Shown piece after piece: positions 42,001-45,000 of a stretch of 64,000 bases of DNA. Position 1 is the stretch's first letter; each line of letters begins with the position of its first letter. The DNA lies in assembly GCF_022846255.1 (NCBI RefSeq), contig NZ_AP025682.1. The stretch is one strand, 5' to 3'. Position numbers: made by a program. Source of the DNA: Escherichia coli. GTDB lineage: Bacteria > Pseudomonadota > Gammaproteobacteria > Enterobacterales > Enterobacteriaceae.

Positions 42001-45000
42001 ATGGCTTTAGTATATTCATCAGGAATACCAATTGTAAAACAAGGTGCGGTATCGGTAGGTAGATTTTCTTTGTTGTCATCATCCAGAACAGAAATAGAAA
42101 ACTGTCGTTCAGGTGTTGATGTCGTGGTTATTAAAATGGTTGGATTAGGAAGAGAAACATATGTTGTCTCATTTTTAGTTTTATTTCTTTGATGTTTTCT
42201 TTGTTAATTTTATCAATCGTTTCAATAGAAAAAAAAGAATCATACCCCATTCGCAGTTCAATTTTATTATCGTTTTCGAATAAATAAATGGCATTATTGT
42301 TTTGAAACAGATTGAATATATTGTTAGCGCAAGTTTGAGTTGCTAGCCAGGATGCCGCTGGATGACTCAAATTAATATGTGTGCTAAAGACTTTGACGCG
42401 ACTACTTCTGTTTTTCTCTTTACTTTCAATTAAATGCCTAGCGCTGTTGGCTGCTTTACAAGTTCCATGCCCCACACGGCAAAAATAATCTCCTGAAAGG
42501 ATACTTACAATCAGTATTACACCAATGACGACAGAAAAAATAGTTCCGATGAGTTTGATGATGACAATCCTTGTGCAGTGTTATTTTCACCATGGATTAT
42601 AATGTTATAGTGAAATTATTGCGCATGTAATTTTTCTCTGATTGTTTTAACATCACATTTATGCACTTCTTCATCTTTGTAGCAGGTAAAAGCCATATAT
42701 GGATGGCTGGTGTCCGGTGCAGATAAAATGCAACTTATTCTTGATAGCTTGAAAAAAAGAGAGGTTTTTTTGAGTGACGGTTGATAGTCGGTGGCAAGGA
42801 AGACGTTTTCGTACACTCGGCAAGAAAAACGAATCACTCTGTCATACTACCAGATACATCAGCAGGGTCAGGTTGCTCAGAAATAAGCAGGATGGGGATC
42901 ACTGAAGAGGCATTTTGGCGATCACAGGAGTCGCATTTGATGGTTAATTTATTGATTTAATGTTTATATTTTGAATTTGATAAATGAGTAACCCCATAAG
43001 TACCCCCAAATGGTTTTGCGTATGGCGTTTGGGGGGATTCCGGGCTACTTTTTCGACTCTTTATTCCACTGTAGCAAACCAGCGATATCCTTCTCGCCTT
43101 CGGCTTCTTTTAAGCGCCGTTGTTGTTCGGCAAACTGAACATACTCCGCCTGCGCTTTTTCATCGGCCATTTTCTTGCTGATTTTACCAGCGCCCTGTAG
43201 AACCTCTCGGTCGTTAAATTGCAGGAACTGATCCAGCTTATCCTGCCAGTCGCGCAAAAAGACTTGCTGACGACGACGGGCCTGATCCTCGGCAAAGTCC
43301 AGCCACATATTAACCACGCGATTAAGTTCGCTGACCTCATCCTGGGTGAGATAATTTTTTGCCACCGTCACGTCGCCCTTACGTACCTCTTCACCTTTAT
43401 AACTGGTCAAGCCCATGTGCGGCTGGCTGGCATCTGCTCGTTTGTGGATGAGTTCCGCAGCGGTATGCCCGGTACAGGCAAAATGCAGTTTATTCTGGAT
43501 GGTTTGAAAAAATTGCGTGGTTTCTTTAAGCGATGGCTGATAGTCGGCAGCTAAAGCAAAGATCTCCCGCACCCGCAAATATACCCGACGCTCGCTGGCG
43601 CGAATATCGCGGATGCGTTCAAGCATCTCATCAAAATAGTCGGGCACAACCGATGAACCGACAGGCGGATTCTTCAGCCGCTCATCGTCCATCACAAAAC
43701 CTTTGATCAAGTATTCCTGAAGCGTCTGGGTGGCCCACTGGCGGAATTGCGTGCCTCGAGGCGAGCGAACGCGATAGCCGACAGCGAGAATGGCTTCGAG
43801 GTTGTAATGGTCTATCTCTCTGGAAACCTGACGTTTTCCTTCCTGGCGAACTATCCGGAATTTCCGGATGGTTGAGTTTTGAACAAGTTCACCTTCGGAA
43901 AATATATTGATTAAATGTTCGTTAATAGTGCGAACATCTTTATCGTACAGTTCAGCCATTGCCGCCTGAGATAACCAGATTGTGTCTGACTCAAAGCGAC
44001 ATTCAACACGCACTCTTCCGTCACCGCTGGCAAACATAATAAACTCGCCTGCTGGGGGCTGGGTTAAGTCTTTGTCTGACATGTCGCCTCCGAAGGAGTG
44101 TTGTTGACGTCGGGAGAGTTCAGTAGAGGCATTTTGGCGGAAGATCACAGGAGTTGAACCTGCCCGGGACCGCTGGCGGCCCCAACTGGATTTGAAGTCC
44201 AGCCGCCTCACCGGAGACGACGATCTTCCGCGCCTCGATTGCTACATGGAGGCGGGGCGCATTATAGCTACTTCCTTGAGTTTCTACATCCCCCAGATCA
44301 GTTTTTTCCGCCTAATACACGCAGCGTATTATCACGAAAACATTATAGTTCATATAAAACTCATATTTTACAATGATATATGAGCGAAATTAACGCTACC
44401 ACGATCACATAAAACAAGAATCATAAATTAATAACCAGATATCGGAATATTCGCTCTCGCAGGGATGGTTTACAAAATGCGTTATCGGTCTCAGCACCCC
44501 TATAGCATCAAGGAAAAGCAGATGAAGAGTGAAGTGTTGTCCGTTAAAGAGAAAATTGGTTATGGCATGGGAGACGCCGCCAGCCACATTATTTTCGATA
44601 ACGTAATGTTATATATGATGTTCTTTTATACCGATATTTTTGGCATTCCTGCCGGATTTGTCGGAACCATGTTTTTGGTCGCTCGTGCACTGGATGCGAT
44701 TTCCGATCCTTGCATGGGGTTGTTGGCCGATCGAACGCGCTCTCGCTGGGGTAAATTTCGTCCGTGGGTACTGTTTGGCGCACTGCCATTCGGGATCGTC
44801 TGTGTACTGGCCTATAGCACGCCAGATCTCAGTATGAACGGAAAAATGATTTATGCAGCAATTACTTACACTCTACTTACCTTACTTTATACCATCGTCA
44901 ATATCCCTTACTGCGCATTGGGTGGTGTAATCACCAATGACCCGACTCAGCGTATCTCGCTGCAATCCTGGCGTTTTGTGCTGGCGACCGCGGGAGGCAT

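Follow-up and report, generated by a model that had tools for sequence, protein, structure and literature searches.

We identified a conserved gene at the edge of the selC island of Escherichia coli that has no ATG, GTG or TTG codon from which its complete N-terminus could be translated. The gene lies near yicL on the minus strand of a 64,000-nucleotide stretch of the E. coli chromosome around tRNA-Sec (selC) (RefSeq assembly GCF_022846255.1, contig NZ_AP025682.1; hereafter the window). On comparative evidence we lean towards regarding it as a real, uncharacterised accessory gene that starts at a near-cognate AUC codon (positions 42559–42557) and whose copy in the window is disabled. The missing canonical start appears to be a conserved feature of the clade and not a peculiarity of the window, and is best explained by AUC/AUU initiation. 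Translation would begin 28 codons upstream of the GTG chosen by the Prokaryotic Genome Annotation Pipeline (PGAP), with an AAGGA element at 42572–42568 serving the AUC codon, and the near-cognate start would keep expression very low. A deletion reducing a run of six adenines to five would disable the copy in the window, and the gene would be under relaxed constraint in E. coli generally.

The open reading frame and its conservation

A preliminary description of this DNA reported a small open reading frame (ORF) at 42131–42558 that encodes a hydrophobic N-terminal segment and has no canonical start codon upstream of it. Minus-strand translation agrees with the second point and moves the 5' limit: the frame opens at 42580, directly after a TAA at 42583–42581, with a second stop at 42588–42586, and the translation across these reads W, stop, K, stop and then HCTRIVIIKLIGTIFSVVIGVILIVSILSGDYFCRVGHGTCK. 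Position 42558, the limit first given, falls on the central base of an ATC codon (42559–42557). A frame scan also agrees that GTG (42475–42473) is the first ATG, GTG or TTG after the upstream stop and that it lies downstream of the helix. In other strains PGAP uses this GTG as the start of a 165-residue 'hypothetical protein'. The open frame upstream of it reads HCTRIVIIKLIGTIFSVVIGVILIVSILSGDYFCR-VGHG... and includes the probable transmembrane helix, whose coding sequence extends from 42553 to 42491. The 21 residues of this segment (LIGTIFSVVIGVILIVSILSG) are strongly hydrophobic, with a Kyte-Doolittle 19-residue mean of 2.89 at residues 3–21 from the proposed start, and a helix is predicted for residues 2–21. 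An open run of 149 codons was matched in 2 of 2000 shuffles of this kilobase of approximately 35% G+C.

The family found by protein searches is very small. Besides the E. coli alleles it contains two closer orthologues, P0003 (contigs L004 and L005; 71% identical) and P0013 (contigs L006 and L007; 59% identical). Contig L004 carries a flagellin lysine-N-methylase whose 90% cluster comprises Escherichia whittamii and related Escherichia, and L006 carries an integrase with a Klebsiella cluster; we refer to these as the E. whittamii-like and Klebsiella-like lineages. A codon-by-codon alignment of E. coli ST131, L004 and L006 extends over 200 codons and contains no insertion or deletion. Across the three lineages the ratio of non-synonymous to synonymous substitution rates (dN/dS, Nei-Gojobori) is 0.10–0.25 for the whole ORF, 0.18–0.45 for the 35 codons before the GTG, and 0.27–0.34 for the helix alone, and the synonymous distance (dS) between lineages is 0.7 to >1.5. 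The other two frames of the same DNA have non-synonymous to synonymous polymorphism ratios (pN/pS) of 0.7–1.9 and contain 13–27 stops. Because dN/dS is low compared with these frames, we conclude that the hydrophobic segment is translated. The suggestion that the ORF is spurious, an accident of AT-rich DNA, is rejected on the same comparison, the frame being conserved in three lineages.

More distant relatives are few. An exhaustive HMMER search of 1.84 billion representatives returned 15 proteins, among which only P0029 (205 residues) and P0031 (199 residues, from Entomohabitans teleogrylli) are distant full-length relatives, with approximately 20–28% identity; a match to P0030 is a repeat-protein artefact. 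A peptide-pattern scan of genome contigs gave 600 pattern matches, none of them confirmed as a further lineage, and a DNA-pattern scan of metagenomes found 10 loci, all E. coli alleles, and no new lineage. There was no match in phage records, and plasmid records yielded only an E. coli replicon of 4.9 Mb that is catalogued there as a plasmid.

The start codon

The codon at which we propose that translation starts is ATC (42559–42557) in E. coli, ATT in both the E. whittamii-like and Klebsiella-like lineages, and GTG or ATG in the distant homologues. The AAGGA pentamer, which resembles a Shine-Dalgarno (SD) sequence, lies 8 nt upstream of it (42572–42568), and the string AAGGA-N8-AT[C/T]-AAA is common to the DNA of all three lineages (acAAGGAttgtcatcATCaaactc in E. 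coli, acAAGGAtcgtcatcATTaaactt in L004 and agAAGGAtttgcattATTaaactc in L006). The DNA encoding P0031 (aaAAGGAttttaagcGTGaaaaaa) has the same pentamer at the same spacing before a canonical GTG (AAGGA-N8-GTG-AAA), and the protein begins M/V-K-K with the helix directly after. In the P0029 group the protein alignment places ATG-AAG at this position. Because it is aligned with the GTG and ATG starts of P0031 and P0029, the ATC at 42559–42557 is taken to be the codon homologous to the family start. There is a one-codon ambiguity between two adjacent ATC codons, depending on whether the HMMER alignment, which begins at residues 3 and 12 of the distant homologues, or the five-lineage protein alignment is followed, and the neighbouring ATC at 42562–42560 is an alternative. 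The 'RIV' codons that precede the proposed start are most readily understood as the ribosome-binding site. Of 1104 E. coli records, 1086 have the same sequence across the 56-nt start region, where PGAP places no annotation.

The preliminary description had suggested a search for homologues with an intact ATG. One was found, in the distant relatives represented by P0029, and none at that codon in E. coli, L004 or L006. An unusual start, one of the options raised there, is the best supported of them, given the string shared by three lineages and the canonical start at the same codon in distant homologues.

Initiation at AUC and AUU in E. coli proceeds at approximately 1–2% of the level at AUG (bioRxiv 10.1101/063800), and both codons are listed as decodable by the initiator tRNA (bioRxiv 10.1101/520783). 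Only infC and pcnB are confirmed natural AUU/AUC-type starts in this species (bioRxiv 10.1101/063800). The gene described here resembles them in lacking a canonical start in E. coli and L006 (L004 is an exception), in having an SD-like element at normal spacing before the AUY codon, and in its expected low expression and sensitivity to initiation factor IF3. A further parallel is that a canonical codon occupies this position in homologues elsewhere, as noted for pcnB (bioRxiv 10.1101/063800). However, initiation here is deduced from comparison alone, and the E. coli copy has AUC, not AUU. In addition, infC and pcnB are core genes with an autoregulatory rationale, whereas this gene is accessory, horizontally acquired and decaying, and has no known function.

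Several observations weigh against initiation at this codon. The AUY codon is carried by three lineages only, and the conservation argument therefore comprises few independent observations. The AAGGA pentamer overlaps the in-frame codons ACA-AGG-ATT, and its conservation could reflect coding constraint. The E. whittamii-like lineage has its first canonical start, an in-frame GTG, 37 codons ahead of the ATT; this GTG abuts the end of a rhuM pseudogene and could be used for initiation there. An allele on a metagenomic E. coli-like contig (L003) has ATG for AGG three codons upstream of the first ATC. This change destroys the AAGGA, the same allele also has a 75-nt internal deletion, and the ATG is absent in L004 and L006. 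Finally, the relaxed constraint and frequent frameshifts seen in E. coli are consistent with a gene already silenced in this species.

If the PGAP model were correct, the product would be a soluble protein of 165 residues starting at the GTG at 42475, and the hydrophobic stretch upstream would be a chance-open, untranslated leader. The GTG is the first canonical start in the frame, is annotated in ST131, Q5 and 2012C-4502, and has a GGAG upstream, though 12 nt away. We nevertheless consider this model improbable. The same codon is GTA in L004 and CCG in L006, so it is not a conserved start, and the position of the first canonical start differs by lineage: the E. coli GTG follows the helix, and in L006 an ATG in the middle of the helix comes first. 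Moreover, the 35 codons upstream of the GTG are under purifying selection, the distant homologues open with the helix directly after M/V-K, and C27, the first cysteine of an invariant C-x6-C, is encoded upstream of the GTG. The RefSeq proteins WP_000509815.1 and WP_001553635.1 (165 residues, ST131 and others) correspond to the same gene at the same place, between yicL and a rhuM remnant. Being modelled from the GTG, they are without the membrane helix and the first conserved cysteine, and the copy in the window differs from them in being frameshifted, minus the last 64 residues. No mention of the RefSeq protein accessions of the gene was found in the literature searched.

Translation could instead start at an out-of-frame ATG at 42593, which opens an E. 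coli-specific ORF of 45 codons (42593–42456; MVKITLHK..., MVKITLHKDCHHQTHRNYFFCRHWCNTDC...) that overlaps the 5' end of the gene. The main frame would then be entered through a +1 shift or a length change in a T6 tract (approximately 42538–42533), by slippage or a phase-variable switch, and the joined product would span MVKITLHKDCHHQTHRNYF-SVVIG. Some rare alleles (the P0014 cluster, with 8 member sequences on 21 contigs, and P0017 and P0025) do join the two frames at the T-tract, and homopolymer indels are frequent at the locus. However, L004 and L006 have neither the ATG ORF nor the T6 tract, the fused alleles have further frameshifts and are truncated at 136 residues, and the sequence is unfused in 1086 of the 1104 records. 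A run of six bases is also short for efficient slippage, and we give this possibility very little credence.

Frameshifts and the state of the gene in E. coli

The 3' end of the ORF at 42131, as first described, is a premature stop and not the native end of the gene. The window has an A5 homopolymer at 42176–42172 where an alignment with two close E. coli relatives and six more alleles has A6. The one-base deletion shifts the frame after native residue 129, and a premature TAA (42133–42131) is reached after 13 aberrant codons (MRQHMFLFLIQPF). The out-of-frame 3' part (42170–41979), translated in the +1 frame, still codes for the native C-terminus ETTYVSLPNP...ELLNIK. In Q5, ST131 and 2012C-4502, all annotated by PGAP with 165 residues from the GTG, the frame is uninterrupted and runs 64 codons further, giving 200 open codons. 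The native stop is the TAA at 41981–41979, and the native gene consists of 193 codons from the ATC at 42559, or 165 from the GTG. Alignment with Q5 and ST131 gives a full footprint in intact alleles, from the SD-like AAGGA to the native stop, of 42572–41979.

Alleles were counted in 5426 complete E. coli genomes with a 47-nt probe able to seed only across the A-tract. The A5 allele occurs in one genome and the A6 version in 1099; the truncation thus reflects either a mutation that is both rare and recent or a sequencing error in the homopolymer. Judged from its sequence, the copy in the window is a frameshift pseudogene in which 13 aberrant residues replace the last 64, and it would be non-functional unless the deletion is a sequencing error. 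A pseudogene had been among the options first listed. That holds for this copy, with the cause being the 3' frameshift (A5 versus A6) and not the loss of a start codon.

PGAP also calls 'hypothetical protein' ORFs on the opposite strand of this region (41968–42192, plus strand, in the window; 1609–1956 of contig L001; 868–1056 of contig L010). These calls occur where the sense copy is frameshifted, as in AR_0017 and SCU-485, and are almost certainly spurious gap-fillers.

The gene looks to be under relaxed constraint in E. coli and to be being lost piecemeal. Four of eight aligned alleles (the window, AR_0017, UTI89 and SCU-485) have homopolymer frameshifts, and one further allele has an in-frame deletion of 75 nt. 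Single-nucleotide polymorphisms among the eight comprise 7 synonymous and 18 non-synonymous changes (pN/pS 0.72). These figures favour a different account of the missing start, in which the ancestor that E. coli shares with the E. whittamii-like and Klebsiella-like lineages lost the start codon, or its early descendants did, and the present copies are relics that are untranslated or translated incidentally; the E. coli gene would then be dead regardless of the A-tract. The AT-richness of the region (30–37% G+C) and the inconsistency of PGAP annotation between strains also fit such a loss. However, dN/dS has stayed low over a synonymous distance of this size, without an indel in 200 codons, helix included. 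We conclude that the gene was translated for most of the time since the lineages split, with a canonical start available in only one of the three. In addition, approximately 80% of the alleles in a spread sample of 60 E. coli genomes still have the intact length (662 nt). We regard early loss of the start as unlikely, although it deserves serious weight.

Predicted protein, chromosomal context and meaning

Assuming initiation at the AUC, the native product would have approximately 193 residues, with a two-residue N-terminus (M-K) followed by one hydrophobic membrane helix. The 21 hydrophobic residues make a helix of membrane-spanning length after a short basic N-region, and the layout is the same in P0029 and P0031. 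A conserved C-x6-C and a basic helix appear to come next, followed by a beta-rich domain of approximately 130 residues with two further conserved cysteines. C27, C34 and C77 are invariant in the five-lineage alignment, and a fourth cysteine near the C-terminus occupies slightly offset columns. An AlphaFold2 model built on the five-sequence alignment is of moderate quality (mean predicted local distance difference test score, pLDDT, 62; predicted TM-score 0.59). It has an N-terminal helix at residues 2–21, a basic helix at 32–49 and a beta-rich core, with pLDDT 80–91 over residues 91–130.

Tentatively, and with low confidence, we picture the product as an envelope protein that is anchored in the membrane and carries a small disulfide-bonded barrel. 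The moderate quality of the structural model weighs against this reading, as does the stretch following the helix, which has 7 lysine or arginine residues and 2 acidic ones in 30; by the positive-inside rule this would place the domain in the cytoplasm. The four conserved cysteines point to a periplasmic domain and so conflict with this flank. Foldseek comparison of the model brought up Tp0751, PliC/MliC and avidins, which have calycin- or lipocalin-like folds, at a best E of 0.16 and TM-scores of at most 0.26, which are not significant. There is no Pfam or PDB sequence match either, and we take the likeness of the modelled domain to these barrels as a resemblance and not as membership. Matches to the Pfam and NCBIfam entries PPL4, Patatin, FliL and megatron are sub-threshold noise, and a PDB sequence profile search with the ORF gave no match. 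PADLOC and PHROGs gave no match for the ORF or the homologues searched, which for PADLOC models included the two distant ones. Homology to genes of SPI-3 (cigR and fidL, for example) was also dismissed, as none of the searches returned a Salmonella protein, and so was a lipoprotein, since the cysteine is not in a lipobox.

All genes of the locus from selC to yicL are on the minus strand. The tRNA-Sec gene (selC, 44229–44135) adjoins an intact rhuM (44082–43045), annotated as 'virulence RhuM family protein'. A degraded second rhuM (42837–42616, or 42950–42616 when delimited more widely), with 40% identity to residues 166–245 of the intact RhuM, lies between it and the ORF, immediately upstream of the latter; this copy is frameshifted and without its C-terminal third. 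On the other side is yicL (41855–40878), whose longest frame starts at GTG 41855 and encodes 325 residues, compared with 307 in the RefSeq product, a second start-site ambiguity nearby. Plus-strand nlpA and yicJ/yicI and minus-strand yicS flank the locus. The G+C content over 41800–42850 is 30–37%, compared with 46–53% in the flanking core genes, and this region is therefore taken to be acquired DNA. A promoter scan detected no convincing minus-strand promoter upstream of the ORF, with counts under the shuffle expectation. A perfect TATAAT at approximately 42598–42603 has a poor -35 element, as judged by eye, and is not relied on.

The locus is present in 1103 of the 5426 complete E. coli genomes (approximately 20%) at 95–99% identity, and its carriers include ST131, UTI89, 536, APEC O2 and ATCC 25922. 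Contig L003 (1–4415) has a different island between selC and the module of rhuM fragment and ORF, with genes for RadC, a CbeA/CbtA toxin-antitoxin system, a 465-residue AAA/SMC-type ATPase and its 243-residue partner, and a DUF2441 protein. As the module stays beside yicL on this contig, it would form the fixed border of a variable island.

It had been suggested that a small membrane protein next to a RhuM-like gene could be its partner or effector. This idea is not supported. The rhuM copy adjoining the ORF is degraded in both lineages that have one: a fragment remains in E. coli, and the version at the same place in L004, though more complete, is a pseudogene broken at several points. A tblastn search found no rhuM at the L006, L007, L012, L013 and L014 loci, the Klebsiella-like and Entomohabitans ones included, and remnants only at E. 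coli-type and L004 loci. For L025 and L026, which were outside that search, the called genes include no RhuM gene and give a ygiQ/yqhH/yqhG/dkgA context. Because the adjoining rhuM is degraded, and the ORF occurs without rhuM elsewhere, the ORF does not appear to be a RhuM partner. The intact RhuM shares strand and selC island with the ORF as a physical neighbour, but has no sequence relationship to it. It matches the PADLOC candidate phage-defence family PDC-S05 over its full length (E 2.8e-173), so that 'candidate defence gene' describes it better than 'virulence factor'.

The orthologues occupy other settings. On L006 the gene (4641–3547, minus strand, with its neighbours) is flanked by an unannotated 228-residue multi-helix membrane protein and a 117-residue helix-turn-helix protein that matches the PADLOC 'control protein' model (4.7e-23), and an integrase lies upstream. 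This neighbourhood suggests a small mobile element, possibly with a restriction or defence-type cassette. In other Enterobacteriaceae the distant homologues (5001–5600 of L013, 6001–6621 of L025 and 506–1126 of L026) occupy a site in the core chromosome, with a ygiQ-type radical-SAM gene on one side and dkgA-yqhD-yqhC on the other. Lpp-family, HIT-family and DUF3828 genes adjoin them, and we take the Lpp-family and DUF3828 genes to be the counterparts of yqhH and yqhG. The context of this site hints at an envelope-related role.

For the window itself the conclusion is a modest one in practice: this ORF is an orphan accessory gene in frameshifted form and not a partner of RhuM, and the start given for this gene in the databases is probably wrong. 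The family as a whole may represent natural AUU/AUC initiation in the Enterobacteriaceae, maintained by evolution in Escherichia and in a Klebsiella-like mobile element with the protein under purifying selection, although on the present comparisons we stop a little short of expecting this. If it is true, annotation pipelines systematically cut the membrane anchor off this protein in approximately 1100 complete genomes. The current model would then be wrong in approximately one-fifth of the complete genomes of E. coli, ST131 and UTI89 among them, rendering a membrane-anchored protein soluble. The gene would be a useful test case for the upkeep of near-cognate starts and for start-finding software. 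It would also join infC and pcnB, the two examples confirmed in E. coli, and would imply that selection has favoured very low or IF3-tuned production of a membrane-anchored protein from a previously undescribed family.

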